Positions 41,401 through 64,000 of a stretch of DNA of 64,000 nucleotides are shown one piece after another; position 1 is the first letter of the stretch; each line of letters begins with the position of its first letter. The position numbers and the translations under genes are program-made. The stretch is taken from assembly GCA_964016885.1 (NCBI GenBank), contig OZ024743.1, positions 178,808,001-178,872,000 of the forward strand, in the 5' to 3' direction. The notes below the pieces were generated by a model. That model was given only the letters and a program-made list of their open reading frames with translations. It was not told where the DNA came from and did not search any database. The DNA is from Eledone cirrhosa (taxonomy: Eukaryota).

Positions 41401-41537
41401 CAATTTGAAGTGTACTTACAAATATATCAGTGAGCGCAACCTGGCAGTCACCAACATTAAGCCAGCTAGTAATATCATATTTGTTAAAACAGATCTAATA
41501 CAATAACGGACATATAATTCAAGTAAACTAGAGGATA

Positions 41538-41733
41538 TAATAATAATTGTTTCTACTTTTGGCACAAGTCCAGCAATTAATTCCAGTGTATTACTGGTAC
41601 GTTATTTGATCGACCCTGTAAGGATGAAAGGCAGAGTTAACCTTGGTGTGATTTGAACTCAGATCACAAAGGGAGGTAGCTCTATGCTCCAACGCACGGT
41701 GTCCGACCCTCTACCGATACTGCCAATCCACCA
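41538..41733 (-). mobile_element. tRNA-derived SINE (family S), copy 1
   Basis: Minus strand reads ggtggattggcagtatcggtagagggtcggac (A-box-like), gagttcaaatc (B box), ctttcatccttacagggtcgatc...gtaccag central domain, and a tail cttgtgccaaaagtagaaacaattattatt. Confidence 0.85.
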
Positions 41734-41755
41734 CCACCAACACCACCAGAAGATA

Positions 41756-41951
41756 TAATAATAATTGTTTCTACTTTTGGCACAAGGCCAGCAATTACCA
41801 GTGTATTACTGGTACTTTATTTTATCGACCTCGTACGGATGGAAAGGCAAAATTAACCTCGGCCGGATTTGAACTCAGAATGGCAAGGGCCGTAACTCTA
41901 TACGTCAAAGCATGGCGTCCGACCCTCTACGGATACTGCCAATCCACCGCC
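41756..41951 (-). mobile_element. tRNA-derived SINE (family S), copy 2, full length
   Basis: Same layout as copy 1: head ggcggtggattggcagtatccgtagag, B box gagttcaaatcc, (ATT)n tail. Confidence 0.88.
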
Positions 41952-41962
41952 ATATATAGATA

Positions 41963-42062
41963 TAATAATAATTGTTTTTCCTCTGGCACAAGGCCAGCAA
42001 TTATTGTACATTACTGGTACTTTATTTTATCGACCCCGTAAGGATGAAAGTTAAAGTTAACC
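41963..42062 (-). mobile_element. SINE family S, 5'-truncated copy 3
   Basis: Only the tail and central domain are present (ggcacaaggccagcaatt...atcgaccccgtaaggatgaaag on the + strand). Confidence 0.8.
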
Positions 42063-42066
42063 TAGA

Positions 42067-42180
42067 ATAATTGTTTCTACTATTTGGCACGATGCCAGCA
42101 ATTACCCAGTACATTACTGGTACTTTTATTTTATCGACCCCGTAAGGATGAAAGGCAAAGTTAACCTCGGCCGGATTTAA
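42067..42180 (-). mobile_element. SINE family S, 5'-truncated copy 4
   Basis: Tail plus central domain, ending at the B-box region (cggccggatttaa on the + strand). Confidence 0.8.
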
Positions 42181-44500: not shown

Positions 44501-44540
<40 letters not shown>

Positions 44541-44735
44541 TCCGAAGGAAAGGCAAAGGAAAAAGAGTGCTCAATAACATCTCTGTCTGATGACCAATCC
44601 AGGCGTATATTAATATTGTCTGGAATCCAAAAACCTTTGGTAATGGAGTAGTTATATTTTGTGTTGTTCACAACGTTAACCTAATATATCCCTTCCATAT
44701 ACTGTACCGATTGTGTTTTTATTTCTGTTCACTTT

Positions 44736-45690: not shown

Positions 45691-46278
45691 CTCATGGTCG
45701 GGTCGTTGGCGACTAAACTGGCAACCCCACCAAGGTTTCTTGGTGAGGAGGGTGACTTTGGACATCCTGCAGGACTAAAAACAAAACCTGTCAAAGGGCA
45801 AAGGAGCTCTTAAGAGTCAATGGCCATCCAAAATCACCGGGAGAGATGACCCCTTTAGCCTTAGTCAAGGCAGAATTCTAGGAGAAGGAAAACTCTGATA
45901 TAACACCTGCAACCCTGATGGTATCCAATGATGTTGACTTGTTCTTCTTTTTGGTAAATAGCATCTTGGTTAAGAGAGTGGGACTGGCTTTGTGCAGTGC
46001 CTTTGCTCACTATAAAAGCTTCACGGCACAGGCATTGCTTTATATCTGGAGATCTCTCTGCACTTGTCCTCACATGGGCCCAGCACTATGTGTCAATAAT
46101 TGTCCTACCATGGGCCTAGCACTATGTGTCAATGATTGTCACAGGTGTAGTGTTTGTACCAGAGGTTTCAAGTCGCTGGCTGGACTAAAAAGTCACACTC
46201 GTTCAGCGCTTCGGTAGGGGTTATCCTACATGGATGTAAAGTAGTGGCCGTACTCGAAAACGAGTTGGCAGCCACCAT
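45691..46278 (+). mobile_element. Non-autonomous RTE-like element (bipartite 5'UTR plus 3' end), copy 1
   Basis: The 3' part encodes a zinc-finger remnant [19 protein letters not shown] as at RTE ORF C-termini. It ends in the hairpin actcg-aaaa-cgagt followed by a (TA)n tail. A second copy lies at 48758-49352. Confidence 0.65.
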
Positions 46279-49352
<3,074 letters not shown>

Positions 49353-49354
49353 TA

Positions 49355-49389
<35 letters not shown>

Positions 49390-49454
49390 TATATATACAT
49401 ACATATATATATATACATATATATACATACATATATATATATATATACATATAT

Positions 49455-49553
<99 letters not shown>

Positions 49554-49705
49554 GAGCTCTGAAATAGCAATATATATATGGATGTATATATAATGTATTT
49601 TGCAATACACTTTATGCTTAATTAAAAGCATTTTGAAGACCGTATGCTATTGTTTTAGAGTAGTGACAAATTCACTTACTTTAATCTCAGCAAACAGGGG
49701 AGATA

Positions 49706-49751
49706 AGCCGACAAGGGCCTTGTTTCGCTTTTCTTGAAGCTTATCAAGGCT
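49706..49751 (-). ncRNA. Type I hammerhead ribozyme, family D (U3-A8 core)
   Basis: agcc-TTGATAA-gctt-caagaa-aagc-GAAA-caag-gcc-cttGTC-ggct. Confidence 0.85.
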
Positions 49752-49862
49752 AACTACCCCTCCTGTCTACTGAGATTACTGATGTTATATTCTTATAGAA
49801 TTCTAGTAAATAATCAGGAGCTGATTATACATCAGTAATCTCAGTAGACAGGGGGGGTAGTT

Positions 49863-49908
49863 AGCCTTGATAAGCTTCAACAAAAGCGAAACAAGGCCCT
49901 TGTCGGCT
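49863..49908 (+). ncRNA. Type I hammerhead ribozyme, family D (U3-A8 core), predicted cleavage after C49904
   Basis: agcc-TTGATAA-gctt-caacaa-aagc-GAAA-caag-gcc-cttGTC-ggct; all three stems pair. Confidence 0.87.
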
Positions 49909-50034
49909 TATCTCCCCTGTTTGCTGAGATTAAAGTAAGTGAATTTGTCACTACTCTAAAACAATAGCATACGGTCTTCAAAATGCTTTTAATTAAGCAT
50001 AAAGTGTATTGCAAAATACATTGTATATACATCC

Positions 50035-50062
<28 letters not shown>

Positions 50063-50068
<6 letters not shown>

Positions 50069-50240
50069 TCGGTACAGTATATGGAAGGGATATATTAGGT
50101 TAACGTTGTTAACAACACAAAATATAACTACTCCATTACCAAAGGATTCTGGATTCCAGACAATATTAATATACGCCTGGATTGGTCATCAGACAGAGAT
50201 GTTATTAAGCACTCTTTTTCCTTTGCATTTCCTTCGGAAG
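50063..50240 (-). mobile_element. Family C HHR-bearing repeat, copy 2 (HHR at 50131-50198)
   Basis: Reverse complement of 44541-44716. The core reads CTGATGA...GAAT-cctttgGTA, so A15.1 is mutated. Confidence 0.72.
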
Positions 50241-50276
50241 TACGTAACACACACACACACACCCACACACACGCAT

Positions 50277-50316
<40 letters not shown>

Positions 50317-50443
50317 GGATGTATATATAATGTATTTTGCAATACACTTTATGCTTAAATAAAAGCATTTTGAAGACCGTAAGCTATTGTTTTAAAGTAG
50401 TGACAAATTCACTCACTTTGATCTCAGAAAACAGGGGAGATAA

Positions 50444-50485
50444 GCCGACAAGACTTGTTTCGCTTTGGTTGAAGCTTATCAAGGC
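50444..50485 (-). ncRNA. Type I hammerhead ribozyme, family D
   Basis: gcc-TTGATAA-gctt-caacca-aagc-GAAA-caa-gtc-ttGTC-ggc. Confidence 0.82.
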
Positions 50486-50759
50486 CAACTACCCCACCTG
50501 TCTACTGAGATCATTGATGTTATATTCTTATAGAAATCTAGTAAATATTCAGGAGCTGATTATGCAGAGCGGTTGTTGGTCAGGCAGAAATTAAAAATTA
50601 GAATTGGAGCTCTGAAATAGCAATATATATATGGATGTATATATAATGTATTTTGCAATACACTTTATGCTTAATTAAAAGCATTTTGAAGACCGTAAGC
50701 TATTGTTTTAAAGTAGTGACAAATTCACTCACTTTGATCTCAGCAAACAGGGGAGATAA

Positions 50760-50801
50760 GCCGACAAGACTTGTTTTGCTTTGGTTGAAGCTTATCAAGG
50801 C
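50760..50801 (-). ncRNA. Family D hammerhead, probably inactive (G12 to A)
   Basis: The plus strand reads ttgttttgct where the other copies read ttgtttcgct, so the core has AAAA instead of GAAA. Confidence 0.75.
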
Positions 50802-50841
50802 CAATATATACATATACCTACATATATTGGCCAATATATTG

Positions 50842-50883
50842 GCCTTGATAAGCTTCAACCAAAGCGAAACAAGTCTTGTCGGC
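50842..50883 (+). ncRNA. Type I hammerhead ribozyme, family D, predicted cleavage after C50880
   Basis: gcc-TTGATAA-gctt-caacca-aagc-GAAA-caa-gtc-ttGTC-ggc. Confidence 0.82.
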
Positions 50884-51039
50884 TTATCTCCCCTGTTTGC
50901 TGAGATCAAAGTGAGTGAATTTGTCACTATTTTAAAACAATAGCTTACGGTCTTCAAAATGCTTTTAATTAAGCATAAAGTGTATTGCAAAATACATTAT
51001 ATATACATCCATATATATATTGCTGTTTCAGAGCTCCAA

Positions 51040-51090
<51 letters not shown>

Positions 51091-51401
51091 AGTTGACGGA
51101 CCCGGCGTATTTAACAATGCCAGGGCCGTAAATTAACAAAGAGAGGACAAGTGAACAAAAGAAAAAAAGGCAAAAAAAAAAAAAAATGATTTTAAAGGAA
51201 AACCCTAAAACAATATATTTTGAAAATAAAAATATAAAAATACATACGAAAGACACAGAAGTCCAGGTTCATATGCTGTTGCGATAACATTTGGCAGTTT
51301 CGATCCCTATCGACGGTACTGCTGATCCACACGGGATTACAGCGTCTGACACAAACCAAAGCGTTATTCAGTGGAGACAAAACAGTAACTTAGCTATAAT
51401 A

Positions 51402-51433
<32 letters not shown>

Positions 51434-51723
51434 ATTAAAACGTAAAGATGAAATTGCACAATACTATGTTTAAAGATTATTTAATCCGACAGAATGAATA
51501 ATTTTATAGTTGCTGCATCAAATTTATGCGGTTTCGATTGGTATAAGAATTTTATCAAATAGATATTGAATATTAAATATAAAAAAAAAATGTTTTTCAT
51601 GTATTCTGTGAGCATTTCGAATATATGTAAATTATGTGTTTAAATTTATGTTGTTTATGAAGGTGTGGTGGTGATGGTAGAGGTGGAATTCAGTAGATCA
51701 GGATTCAATTGAATTCACTTTAT

Positions 51724-51731
51724 ATGTGTGT

Positions 51732-51821
<90 letters not shown>

Positions 51822-51897
51822 GTGTGCGTGCGTGTGCGTGTGTATGTGTGTGTGTATGTGTATGTGTATGTGTGCGTGTGCGTGTGCGCGTGTGTGT
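51724..51897. repeat. (TG)n/(TGCG)/(TATGTG) microsatellite
   Basis: Direct reading. Confidence 0.95.
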
Positions 51898-52398
51898 TTA
51901 ATTGTGTTACTAAACTTCTTAATATATAGGTCATTATGTAAGCAGGACAATTTTGTAAGCAAAATAAATCACTCCACTTCGTATCCATCTTTATGGGATC
52001 ACATACGACGGAATATATGTATAATAATCAATATGAAAACAAGTTTTCCATAATACACTATATTAGATAATTTGTTTTTATGCCTCTTTTAGTAGTGTCA
52101 GCTGTTATGACGCAATGGTACCATTGCATTATTCTTGTTATGTGTGACACGACGTCTTCAGGCAGTCTATATTATGTAATGCAGATTGATGATATGGAAA
52201 CAGCCTGATGTTCGATGTTGCCAAATTAGGATTCTTGTTCTATGTGGGGACGGGAGCTTGAACTAGCAACAAGAAGTACGTAATGATATCATTGCATAAT
52301 AACAGCTAGCTGACACTGCAGAAATACGTATAGCAGAGAATTACCTAATAAAAAGAATTATGGAAACTTGTCTGCTTATACATTATTATTATTATTAT

Positions 52399-52595
52399 GG
52401 GCGGTGGATTGGCAGTAACGGTAGAGGGTCGGACGCCATTCTTTGACGCATAGAGTTACGGCTCTTGCCATTCTGAGTTCAAATCCCGCCGAGTTAACTT
52501 TGCCTTTCATCCTTTCGAGGTCGATAAAATAAAGTACCAGTAATACACTCGGTGATTGCTGGCCTTGTGCCAAAAGAAGAACAATTTTTTATTAT
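52399..52595 (+). mobile_element. tRNA-derived SINE family S, copy 5
   Basis: gggcggtggattggcagtaacggtagag...gagttcaaatcccgcc...ctttcatcctttcgaggtcgataaaataaagtaccag...ccttgtgccaaaagaagaac; preceded by (ATT)n. Confidence 0.9.
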
Positions 52596-52809
52596 GGGCG
52601 GTGAATTGGCAGTGTCGGTAGAGAGTCGGACGCCATGCTTTGCAGCATAGTTACATCTCTCTACGGTCTGAGTTCAAATCCCGCCGAGATTAACTTTGCC
52701 TTTCATCCTTACGGGGTCGATAAAATAAAGTACCATAATGTACTTGGTAATTGCTGGCCTTGTGCCAAAAGTAGAAACAATTATTATTATTATTATTATT
52801 ATTATTATA
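52596..52809 (+). mobile_element. tRNA-derived SINE family S, copy 6, with (ATT)n tail
   Basis: Head-to-tail with copy 5; tail attattatt at 52780-52809. Confidence 0.9.
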
Positions 52810-52952
52810 GTTGCATCTATCTTGCTTTATGTTCATACGAGTTATCACCAAGTCACAACCAGTGACCTCAAGAGACAACAAGGTCCGCTATGTTCAAGAA
52901 AGAACATACATACACACACATGCATCTTTAGGTGTTTAGACATGTGATGTAC

Positions 52953-53471
52953 TTATATTGACAGAATCTTCCTTAGTATATAGGCAGTTCCCATTAGTAC
53001 TATCTTTTGTATTTCTCCTATACGCGGGTTTCCTGGGATTTGCGATAAGTAATCATTAGACACCTTAGGTATCATTCCTAGAGCGCCTACAACCACTGGT
53101 ATTGTTTTAGTTCTCAATGTCCACATTTTCCCAATTTCTATCTCCAGGTCCTTATACTTGCTCAATTTTTCAAATGTTTTTATAGATACATTCTTGTCTA
53201 TTGGAACGGACATATCAATCAGCAGGCATACCCTCTTTTTAAAGTCCTTCAGTATTATATCAGTTCTATTTGCCTCTATTTTTCGGTCTGTTTGGATGCT
53301 AAAGTTCCACAAGATTGAGATGTGATCTTTTTCAAGTATGGGAGGTGGTTGATGCTCCAACCAATTCTTTTGATGGGTCAGGTCAAAATGCTTACACATT
53401 ATCCAATGTATGTATTGTGCAGCTCTGTCATAGCTGTTTAGGTATTCGGTTGGAGCTATAGGACTGCACAT
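52953..53471 (-). pseudogene. Restriction-like endonuclease C-terminus of R4/Dong element 1
   Basis: IHW..C, W..H.P, LWNF.IQTD..I.ANRTDI, LID.SVP.D, EK.SKY..L, IPVVVGALG. Confidence 0.88.
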
Positions 53472-53826
53472 AGAAATTATATGATCAATGGTCTCTGGGT
53501 TTTCTACACGGCATAATGGGTTGCATCCATTTTTTTATTATGTTGGCTTGGTAATTTTTTGTTGGCAGACACTGATCTTGTGCTGATATAATCAGTCTTC
53601 AGTCACCGATTTCAATCCAGAGGATGCCAACCACTGATGGGTTAAAGTTTTGTCAACATCAGGATTGTTAGCTCTCTCTGGGTATTTTCCATACAGAGGC
53701 TTTTCTTGCCATTTCTTAGCCAGTTTCTGTAGCAGTTCTTTCTTTGCAGTTACTTTTACCTGCTTTGCCTTTTCTGTGTTTTTCATTTCAGCAGTAAATG
53801 GAACTTCTGAGATTTGTAATCCATTA

Positions 53827-55208
53827 CTATATCTTTCTCAATCTTTTGCTGCTGTCGTGTTTCAAAACGAGTTTGATCATCCAATCATGTGATTCCCTTA
53901 GATATGTAGATAATCCAATTGTTGCAGTTTTCAACGCAATCTCTAACTGGATTAACCCACGTCCTCCTTCTTTCCTAGGGAGATATATTCTATCTGTATC
54001 TGCCTTAGGGTGATGCATTCTGTGCATGGTTAAGAATTTTCTAATTTTTGTATCGAGCCTTCGGATCTCTGTGCTTGACCAGTTGATGACATTGTAACTG
54101 TAGGTTACTACTAGTATGGCAAGCGTGTTTATGGCATCGATCCTATTCCTTGCATTCAATTTCGTTCTTAAGATTGCTCTTACGCTGCGGTAACATTCCT
54201 TCCTTATCTTTTCTCTCATTGTCGAGTGCTTGATTCCGTCTCCTTCACAAACACCTAGATATTTGTAAGTTTCCTCTTGTTCAAGTTCTCTTATCACATT
54301 CCCCCGATCAAGATTAATGTCTGAACTCTTCAGCAGCTTTCCTCTGGTGAACGTTGCTTTAGCGCATTTATCTAGTCCAAACTCCATTTTAATGTCATCA
54401 CTGAACTGCTTCACAGTGGATAATAGCCCTTGCAATTGTTCATCAGTTTTTGCAAATAGTTTCAGGTCATCCATGTAGAACAAGTGATTAATGGTTTTGT
54501 CATAGACTTTATATCCATATTTTGTTTCATTGAGCATTTTACTTAATGGTATAAGTGCGATGCAGAATAAAAGCGGTGATAAAGAGTCACCCTGAAAAAT
54601 TCCACAATTAATATTAATTTCTCCAGCTTCCAGTGATCTTTTTTTCACTATTCAAAAGGAGTGTCGTTTTCCATGTCTTCATACTGAATGACAAGAACCT
54701 CCTCACAACGAGAGATATTTTGAAAATCTCTAAACATTTTTCAATCCAACTGTGTGGCAAACTATCGAATGTTTTTTTTATAATCTATCCAAGCAATTGA
54801 TAGATTTTTGTGTGTATTATGACAATCTTCCAGTATCATTTTGTTAACCAAAAGCTGATCTTTACAGCCATATGAGCCTCGTTTACACCCTTTCTGCTCA
54901 ATGGGAAATAGGTCATTTGTTATCAGGTGGTCATATGTATATTCAGTTAGGACTGATGTTAAAATTGTATACATTGTTGTCAAGCAAGTTATTGGTCTGT
55001 AATTTTTTGGATTGTTTGTCTCATCATTATTCGGAAGCAGGGATGTAATGCCGTTAACTAGCCATGATGGTATCTTTTCTGGCTCCTTATCTATTGCATT
55101 GTAAAGTTGGGCTAACAGCTCATGAGACTCTGCGAAGGCATTTATCCAAAAATTTGGTATTTTGTCTTTTCCTGGGGATTTCCATTTGCTGTTTTTTCTA
55201 AGAACCAA
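53827..55208 (-). pseudogene. Reverse transcriptase domain of R4/Dong element 1 (frameshifted)
   Basis: ORF fragments 54762-55208 and 53827-54648 with the YMDD catalytic motif. Confidence 0.9.
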
Positions 55209-56340
55209 ACGTAACTGTTAAACTGTTATATTTTACCATGTTTGCTCCTCAAGGTGAGCTGTATCTTTGATTTGTCTGTCTATCCATGGGGCATGTATAT
55301 TATGAACCTTTTCTTCGGCCCAGATCTTTTCCCAGAATTCTTGCACTTCCTCCTTGGGTGGTATTGATTTAGCAGTTATTGTTGATTTGCCAATTTTTCT
55401 GTAGAAATTTATTTGGTTGTTTTTGAACATATTATTATCCTTATAGAATCTAGATCGTTTTTCAAAGCTCCTTATACGAGAGCTTTGGCCGACACTTTTT
55501 GCTTGATTATTTCTATCAGCATGCCTACGTCACTTGTTGGTTTTATACTGTATTTTCTTTTCAATTTTCTAAGTTTAGTTTGTTTAACATGTTCACCTAC
55601 TTTGTAGTTTGTTAACATTTCTATGTCAGATCGGAGAAGGTTTATTTGGCGATTGATGTTCTCTTGCCAAGTAGATTTCTTGTGGGAATTCCTTTGTTTT
55701 TTCATCTTCACTACACATTAGTGATTGATGACTTTAGCCGATGCATAATAGAGATTATTTAGATCAGTAATGTTTCGTTTGTTTGTGATGATAATGTATT
55801 TGAGAATTATGTTAGTTTTGTGTATTATCTTTTGGTTCTGTTTGGAGTTCTGGATGTTAGGGAGAGTGTCTCGTTCCCCCATGTCAGATTCTTTCATTTT
55901 CATCCATTCGATCATAATTTCATCCTTCGATTTGGCAACTTCATTCTCATTCATTTCTTTATCATTTATGATCTCATTGTTTTCATTTTGAGTTTCATTT
56001 TGAGCATGCACTCCCTCAACTTTTTCGATCCTTTCTTTAATTTGTACTGCTGTCAGTGATTCCGCTCCAACCCTGGGATTCGAAGTGTTACAATTTACCT
56101 CGTTTTCACTGACACAGTTTCATTTTCCCTTCGCTGACTTTGTGCTAATAGCTTGATCTGATCAATTTCAATATCAGTTAGTAACTTTTTTTTAACAATA
56201 TTTCTTTGTATATTGGCTAGTTTGTTACTGTCAACATAGCCTCTGTTTTCGGGATGTTTCTTTTTACAGTTGATATATGTCTGTTCTGTATTCGATCTAT
56301 TTGATGGGTAGTACATGGCAGTGTAGAAAGCCTCAGGGAC

Positions 56341-62406: not shown

Positions 62407-63735
62407 GTGTGTCTGTGTGTCTTGTGTATTAGATTTAAATAGTCAGATTTTTTTTTTAAGATTCTAACAAGCTTATGGAGACTGCGATATTTAGAATATC
62501 ACGCAACGTCATAGCATCAACCGGCTGCATAACAATTATTTACGAATTTCTAATGGAATTCCTCATTGACAAAAAGGGTCAAGAGACGTGTGTTAAAAAG
62601 GTTACTGACGAAAACCGTAACAATACTTCTGGTTAGAGCAAGACACGAAAAGAGCAGTGAACTATTGAAACTTCCAGCTCACATCTGGCACCCCTATTGA
62701 ATATGCTCTTAAATTTATTGATCTCTGATTTCTTAATATTTCGTCTTTTTTTCTTTTCCAGATTCTATTTTCTTGATTTTTTTTTTGGTTCGTTAGTTTA
62801 TACTTTTCATTTTTTGGTTTTCATGTCTTTGTATTTTTTTTTTCTTTTCATTATTTTCCATTAGTCAGTACGACCTAGGTAAAGAATGTACATACATAGA
62901 CTGGTTTAGTGCTACATATATATATAATATGTGTAATCTCAGTGTGGACATGCCAAATATCATGCGTCGTGACATGCTGGGCCTTAATTGGTATTAGAAT
63001 TCTATTGTTAAGACAGTATTTAGTGTTGTTACTGGCAATGTTCGTTTCGATGCTGTTGTTGTTGCAGATGATGCTGTTGAAGTTGATGCTGGTGTTGGTG
63101 ATGTGGTTGTGATAGTGTCTGTTATAGCAGTGGTAAGGTTGCTGATTGTTGATTTATTCAACCTACAATTCAGCTACAGTATTTCTTGCTACGTTCATAT
63201 CTTACAACGGTATTTCAATGTTATCGATCTGCAAGTATAACCTTTTACTTTGACCTATGCATTAAATAGTTATATGAAGAAAAATTTCTAGTTTACAAAC
63301 ATGATACATTAGCAAACCTGAATATACAACTAGAAAAGTATATGTGTAAACATGTGTGTATGTGTGTGTGTGTGCGTGTGTAAATTGGGAAAAGAATATG
63401 CAGACCTTAAGAGATTGTGTTTAATAATAAAGATGTCTAATACAGGTTCAAGGCCTTCAATTTGTGGGGAAGGGAATCTTGATGGTATATCTGTTATTAA
63501 ATGCTGTATATGTGGTGTGGTAAATTATATCACTAGCAGTAGTTAATGGGTAGATTATTCCATCGACCGCAGATGGATAAAGGGACATTTCAGATTGTGG
63601 TACAGATTTGAAATCAAACCGCAATGGGACAGGGCAAATACTGCTAAATATTTATCCAACAGACAAAGTACTCAGTAAATCCACCGCTGTAATCATAACA
63701 ACAACAATTGTGATAATAAAAATGATAATTATAAT

Positions 63736-63931
63736 GATAATAATAATTGTTTCTACTTTTGGCACAAGGCCAGCAATTACCCAGTGCATTGCTGGTACTT
63801 TATTTTATCGACCCCTTATGCATGAAAGGCAAAGTTAACCTCGACAGGATTTGAACTCAGGATGGCAAGGGGCGTAACTCCATGCATCAAATCATGGCGT
63901 CCGACTCTCTACCGATACTGCCAATCCACCG
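63736..63931 (-). mobile_element. tRNA-derived SINE family S, copy 7
   Basis: taataataattgtttctacttttggcacaaggccagc...atttgaactcag...ctgccaatccaccg on the + strand. Confidence 0.88.
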
Positions 63932-64000
63932 TATTATATATATATATATAAATATATATATATATAGCGGCGATGAATTAGTTTTGCGAGGTTTTTTATA

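Follow-up and report, generated by a model that had tools for sequence, protein, structure and literature searches.

What kind of element do five closely spaced hammerhead ribozyme motifs in the Eledone cirrhosa genome belong to, and how is it copied into DNA? The motifs occupy positions 49551-51046 of the 64,000-nt stretch that we analyzed (the window). An initial annotation had read this region as a tandem family with a 316-nt unit, whose cleavage at consecutive hammerheads would release a monomer able to circularise as a retrozyme does.

Two head-to-head insertions with five hammerheads

The region is not a single-strand array. It consists of two separate, mirror-image, two-armed insertions belonging to two subfamilies (49551-50044 and 50307-51046), each with (TA)n on both sides, with 262 nt between them, and it holds only one complete 316-nt unit. 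Here unit position 1 is the base after the cut site, and the reference unit runs from 50762 down to 50447 on the minus strand. Of the hammerheads, three are read from the minus strand and the other two from the plus strand.

Insertion 1 (subfamily A) comprises a long-end arm on the minus strand (49551-49828; unit 200-316, then 1-159, with (TA)n at the end) and a short-end arm on the plus strand (49829-50044; unit 243-316, then 1-140, with (TA)n at the end), which meet at a blunt junction. The long-end arm carries hammerhead 1 (49710-49751, minus strand; U3 at 49747, C17 at 49710, loop II caagaa) and the short-end arm hammerhead 2 (49863-49904, plus strand; U3 at 49867, C17 at 49904), the best-folding copy, with an active fold predicted 2.9 kcal/mol above the minimum. 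Insertion 2 (subfamily B) starts with a short-end arm on the minus strand (50307-50804; unit 275-316, one full unit, then 1-140). This arm contains the sole complete unit of the region, from cut site to cut site (50447-50762, minus strand), whose longest ATG-started frame has 28 codons, together with hammerhead 3 (50447-50486, minus strand; core intact, U3 at 50482, C17 at 50447) and hammerhead 4 (50763-50802, minus strand; U3 at 50798, C17 at 50763). The centre of insertion 2 is a 34-nt TA-rich filler (50805-50838), both arms beginning at unit position 275, and the long-end arm (50839-51046, plus strand; unit 275-316, then 1-166, with (TA)n at the end) contains hammerhead 5 (U3 at 50845, C17 at 50880). 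Unit positions 141-166, the 26-nt 'tail' between the two fixed 3' ends, correspond to 50597-50622 on the minus strand and contain a motif common to sister families.

The spacer between the insertions (50045-50306) is outside the element and is composed of (TA)n, 185 nt, and then (CA)n(TA)n. Its 185 nt (50062-50246) are an inverted 96.6% copy of a 177-nt sequence 5.5 kb away (44540-44716), which at full length was found in none of the other fetched loci besides the paralog. The paralog reflects a duplication of at least 9 kb (window 46958-56149), inverted and 1 Mb away, at about 98.7% identity (L086, G000:C4:179866500-179876400); it represents either a segmental duplication or an assembly haplotype. 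Other repeats in the window are a 41-kb tandem array (1-41103; about 863 copies of a 48-nt CAC/CAT-rich unit, 93% matches), which has an extreme strand skew and makes up two thirds of the window; two copies of a common repeat of about 590 nt (45691-46276 and 48759-49354) on either side of a 2.5-kb (TA)n tract, also present in many fetched loci at 88-96%; and copies of a dispersed repeat of about 200 nt in short tandems (41530-42178, 52385-52806 and 63721-63951).

All five hammerheads are of type I, with the core TTGATAA, helices I-III and a GUC triplet, and loop II and helix III vary while pairing is kept, as the initial annotation had described. The loop II variants caacaa and caacca, together with the two forms of helix III, are subfamily markers, and caagaa was seen, among the loci compared, only at this locus and its paralog. 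The core is intact in four of the five copies; the one reported to lack G12 is hammerhead 4, with a G12A change at base 50777. This G12A is probably decay after insertion, since G12 lies in a CpG and 13 of 15 G12 variants genome-wide are G>A. Hammerhead 4 also misses most of the 5' strand of the extended helix I, folds no better than chance (z 0.24) and is predicted to be inactive. The three copies with the full extended helix I have folding z-scores from -5.9 to -7.5, and the two 5'-truncated copies have 0.0 and 0.2.

The cut sites at 50763 and 50447 are indeed 316 nt apart. Nevertheless, no 316-nt monomer would be released from this pair, because the cut at 50763 requires the hammerhead with G12A. 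The paralog also carries a G12A copy, but it has one extra 316-nt unit and two intact adjacent hammerheads, so monomer release is possible from other copies. Two consecutive complete hammerheads, which Li et al. take as the mark of an 'active' element, are absent here and present at the paralog and at many other loci. Assembly collapse in the window may underlie the missing unit. The copies at 49551-51046 would be products of the proposed insertion process, not monomer sources.

The U3-A8 hammerhead fold

A search against Rfam at the gathering score gave no hits over the region; below this score the HH9 model hit all five hammerheads with E-values of 0.0006-0.07 (0.007 for hammerhead 1) and 20-26 bits, the gathering threshold being 52. 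The predicted catalytic fold is not the minimum-energy fold but lies 2.9-6.2 kcal/mol above it, in a model that does not include tertiary contacts. A related caution is that the accessible text of a 2026 preprint gives eight of nine predicted Xenopus retrozyme dimers as showing no cleavage in vitro (10.64898/2026.07.22.740005). The reading of U3-A8 as a compensated tertiary pair held in 14 representatives of the family and its sister families, which have ten U-A pairs, four C-G pairs and no mismatches at positions 3 and 8. The helices, too, are kept across genomic copies, with covariation across sister families: in the 14 representatives, 17 of 23 pairs change on both sides and 95% of cells pair. 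None of 500 shuffles gave covariation as high, a count that is not a probability since the rows are related. An additional example is the compensatory change of helix III from CAAG/CTTG to CATG/CATG, which defines a third subfamily, C, with 556 copies. The repeated compensatory changes in all helices and at the 3-8 pair argue that selection has acted on the hammerhead fold. For the switching of the 3-8 pair, two changes are required on the best tree of 15 rows, but a single origin is not rejected (p-AU 0.086).

The variant itself is not new, as natural U3-A8 cores have been published (PMC3088659, PMC4209133). These papers describe the same core covariation, and in Schistosoma mansoni about 1,300 hits, which are linked to Cercyon Penelope elements and reported to be active in vitro. 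The Schistosoma motifs are described as minimal (no helix III), heterogeneous and mostly single, whereas those of the 316-nt family are full type I hammerheads, homogeneous and placed in a tandem unit.

Two further readings of the core were considered and rejected. U3 might serve as an off-switch through pairing of the core UUG with helix III, and this pairing is present in the minimum-energy fold; however, an in silico C3-G8 swap shifts the active-fold gap inconsistently (6.2 to 3.7, 2.9 to 2.8 and 4.3 to 6.9 kcal/mol), and subfamily C weakens the UUG pairing while its array lengths are similar. Purifying selection inside subfamilies is likewise not indicated: private variants occur in the core at 2.1 per 1,000 and elsewhere at 1.9-2.5 per 1,000, and the core is thus not depleted of them, as expected for decay after insertion.

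Some units deviate from the consensus. The distant sister units L093, L185 and L068 keep U3-A8, and the lowest position of their helix II does not pair, with C or A facing A. In subfamily C, the core change A9G is found in all four units of one locus (L218) and in both arms of another (L234), reflecting either a minor lineage whose core has changed or RNA editing that occurred repeatedly. As for scars of A-to-I editing, the comparison of A>G with T>C gave p 0.053 in the long stem and p 0.41 elsewhere.

A dispersed family with paired ends

The family is abundant, with at least 1,642 exact-core copies in the 3.0-Gb genome. Exact matches to a 32-mer spanning the ribozyme number 1,086, with 556 more for its subfamily C version, while reversed controls gave no occurrences. 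Position 3 is changed in six copies and position 8 in two, and no copy has C3-G8; subfamily C pieces carry U3 (119 of 119) and A8 (121 of 121) throughout. The unit is non-coding, without any ATG-started frame over 28 codons, and no frame encoding a reverse transcriptase and GIY-YIG domain was found in the unit or joined to it. It forms tandems of 2-26 units, and short copies are dispersed over many chromosomes. Within one insertion the units diverge by 1.6-1.9% in subfamilies A and B and by 0.7-0.9% in C. An end-region motif of the wider group has 18,736 matches, which among the matches listed belong mostly to a 310-nt sister family with C3-G8. In the separate listings of core matches for the two families, the number of hammerheads per locus is about 1.9 in the 316-nt family versus 4.8 in the 310-nt one. 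Matches are strand-skewed in subfamilies A (319 versus 168) and C (363 versus 193), which implies one or more long single-strand arrays beyond the matches listed. In two loci (L099 and L006), one arm includes isolated units or stretches from a different subfamily, a pattern suggestive of ectopic conversion or template switching.

In these respects the family resembles a retrozyme, as had been proposed: a 316-nt non-coding unit with one type I hammerhead is repeated in tandem, and judged by sequence the element works like an animal non-LTR retrozyme. According to the accessible text of the two principal accounts of metazoan retrozymes (Cervera and de la Pena 2020, PMC7229834; Li, Clavereau and Pollet 2026, 10.64898/2026.07.22.740005), these also have non-coding units of 170-400 nt with a type I hammerhead each, occur as tandem and solo copies, and are proposed to be mobilised by Penelope-like elements. 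The 316-nt family differs from them in the U3-A8 core, a helix III of 4-5 bp and a resolved two-armed geometry with paired ends; transcripts, cleavage and circles have been shown for those retrozymes, and the 316-nt family is known from DNA.

To characterize this geometry, which the initial annotation had overlooked, we used 143 loci of subfamilies A and B (overlapping loci, the paralog and a duplicated copy of L041 were dropped) and 44 fetched loci of subfamily C (overlaps and one look-alike were dropped). The A/B sample contained 109 head-to-head junctions, of which 87 joined a short end (136-140) to a long end (159-177), none joined two like ends, and 22 had an unclassified end. In subfamily C there were 41 junctions: 31 short with long, one long with long, and nine unclassified. 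Altogether, in 118 of 119 classifiable two-armed insertions one end lies about 140 nt and the other 159-177 nt after the cut site. An internal TA tract (129-140) precedes the short end, long ends are mainly at 166, 171 and 173, and the 3' flanks are mostly (TA)n among the flanks listed. The arms overlap by 1-7 nt at 63 of the 109 A/B junctions. In the 310-nt sister family (eight loci) the ends are at 139 and 163-165.

The 5' ends, in contrast, are spread over the unit, with three of 300 within 5-6 nt of the cut site versus 10.4 expected if uniform. Arms starting exactly at position 1 (L249) or 2 (L148) occur as chance allows, and a first-pass signal of a pile-up at the cut site was an alignment artefact. 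At least one cut site is crossed by 161 of 174 arms, a fraction biased by the choice of loci, which were picked by hammerhead patterns, so that arms crossing the junction are favoured. Since the 5' ends are spread and the arms cross cut sites, cut linear monomers do not appear to be the usual template.

Such paired ends bear on whether the family could be a satellite spread by DNA recombination, its hammerhead-like fold having arisen by chance. Some arrays are long, up to 26 units, as a satellite would have it, but this reading is refuted by the fixed paired ends and the strong covariation, and the short copies are dispersed on many chromosomes; we regard it as wholly implausible.

The insertions instead show the features of Penelope-type insertion: an adjacent inverted 5'-truncated copy, a one-sided tail and an AT-rich or microsatellite target. 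Judged by analogy, the paired ends correspond to the Penelope 'tail' and would be the signature of double internal priming. Insertions of EN+ Penelope-like elements are described as having partial tandems and an adjacent inverted 5'-truncated copy (Craig et al. 2021, PMC8557442), with a tail at one end and (TA)n or AT-rich targets (PMC8557442; Frangieh et al. 2024, PMC11167929). Unlike them, the 316-nt family has no reading frame, and its tail, likewise one-sided, measures 26-33 nt, as against some 30-40 nt for the Penelope type. The purified anole Penelope-type protein is reported to nick and extend both strands at AT-rich DNA, from two internal start sites downstream of the hammerhead that bound the tail (PMC11167929). 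According to the accessible text of that paper, hammerhead cleavage is not needed, the start site is not homologous to the cut DNA, and the start sites are used independently of the strand in vitro; in the 316-nt family, in contrast, the short end overlaps an internal TA tract matching the target, and the ends are paired, one of each.

We therefore compared the copies with coding elements. Neither the unit nor an end-region profile matched Penelope-type terminal repeats in 60 loci of two families plus others, a minority of the families in this genome. The genome contains several young Penelope-type families that retain coding capacity, their open frames spanning 735-927 codons (L154, L285 and L057), none of them with the end motif. 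The copies might be no independent element at all but 5'-truncated terminal-repeat stubs of a coding Penelope-like element. Such stubs are described as sharing the two-armed form, and U3-A8 hammerheads are reported in Penelope terminal repeats (PMC4209133). The units, however, repeat head to tail without coding sequence between them, and at the loci examined what lies upstream in an arm is either a further unit or the opposing arm, with no arm seen to lead into a reading frame, which makes this origin very improbable.

We consider it likely, with a probability of roughly three in four, that the copies form a young family of high copy number and without coding capacity, whose U3-A8 fold is conserved and whose ends come in fixed pairs, and that this family is an animal non-LTR retrozyme: a non-autonomous element whose insertion into (TA)n depends on a reverse transcriptase/endonuclease borrowed from a Penelope-like element. 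From published Penelope biochemistry we infer double nicking, two-site internal priming and microhomology joining. The enzyme would nick both strands of (TA)n; each 3' end would then prime at an internal site of the RNA, one of them on the UA tract (129-140) and the other 26-33 nt further 3'; both ends would be extended along RNA of a single lineage, across the hammerhead junction; and the two cDNAs would be joined by 1-7 nt of microhomology. With less support, we suggest that some templates (in A/B) may be multi-unit transcripts that stayed uncut and others (in C) monomer circles formed by self-cleavage and ligation. Copying of circles would regenerate multimers and maintain selection on the ribozyme.

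Much of this framework is already in print, namely the class, the core variant and the link with Penelope, and the family itself is ordinary. A 2026 preprint argues that retrozymes are non-autonomous Penelope derivatives (10.64898/2026.07.22.740005). We found no description of the 316-nt family in the literature on octopus Penelope elements and hammerheads and on retrozyme reverse transcription, a body of texts that included few subscription papers and lay outside Repbase and Dfam; the supplements of PMC7229834 could list cephalopod repeats.

Uncut multimers and circles as possible templates

How retrozymes re-enter DNA is still a matter of proposals, such as the copying of circles (PMC7229834), and the sole in vitro Penelope system is reported to have used unprocessed RNA (PMC11167929). 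As the two arms of an insertion are two independent copies of one template, shared variants can separate these routes from sequence alone: a variant in every unit points to a monomer circle, and one confined to matching units, as numbered from the 3' end, points to a multimer. Both arms almost always belong to the same lineage, 550 of 578 column checks being uniform within an insertion.

Among 87 A/B insertions we found eight in-register shared rare variants in seven loci, one all-unit and one off-register variant, where about 1.7 coincidences are expected, along with 335 single-unit variants. The 3'-anchored and centre-anchored registers differ in four of the seven loci, and by our reading of the alignments all four follow the 3' end. 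In the sample of 31 subfamily C insertions, three shared variants were in all units, none was in register and one was off-register. The contrast of A/B with C has a Fisher p of 0.018, which is post hoc and based on small numbers; the test uses 13 shared variants from A/B and C together. Divergence between the A/B arms is 1.63% for the same unit versus 1.90% for different units, only slightly lower, and hence most templates were uniform. What is new here is sharing in the same unit only in A/B versus sharing in every unit in C, and this pattern suggests that uncut multimer and circle templates may both occur. A candidate that did not qualify is the all-unit CTGAAGA of a 310-nt locus, which is not private but belongs to an 829-copy lineage.

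Our most specific version of this reading is a tentative one: one dimer of a Penelope-type enzyme, starting at two fixed internal sites, would copy one and the same RNA molecule into the two strands of a break. The family would draw on two types of template, uncut multi-unit transcripts, whose unit mutations reappear in register in the two arms, and ligated monomer circles, from which multimers are seeded anew. Conversely, it is possible, though doubtful, that all insertions copied round a monomer RNA circle and that the unit-specific shared variants arose later by conversion between the inverted arms. This would fit the lack of a stop at the cut site, the uniform lineage markers inside insertions, the three all-unit rare variants of subfamily C, and a 6.5-unit arm with eight variants in every unit (L191); circles are reported for coral, mussel and axolotl retrozymes (PMC7229834). 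Arms can also exchange sequence, as the off-register variant of subfamily C (L252) is centre-anchored and fits hairpin conversion between the arms, and the self-pairing (TA)n flanks could favour 3'-anchored conversion. Against an exclusive use of circles stand the excess of same-unit sharing in seven of the 87 A/B insertions and the 3' anchoring of all four informative loci. All-unit sharing in C, for its part, also follows from a uniform source array.

At the other extreme, the hammerhead could be a passenger, with only uncut read-through transcripts inserting and arrays growing by DNA duplication without any circle. Unprocessed RNA is reported as the dominant substrate of the anole protein in vitro (PMC11167929). 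Shared variants here include the core changes U3G and A15.1U and the A9G of L218 (four units) and L234 (both arms). Unit number also shifts in DNA, the paralog having one unit more and the 26-unit array repeating private variants within one arm. A passenger, however, would not show the compensatory changes in all helices and at the 3-8 pair that mark a selected fold, and we consider this unlikely.

If the use of two templates is true, the genome holds a readable record of the template used by each insertion, and the U3-A8 and C3-G8 sister families would be a natural experiment on how ribozyme speed relates to the balance of templates. If both templates hold genome-wide, this would account for the continued selection on a ribozyme that insertion does not require.
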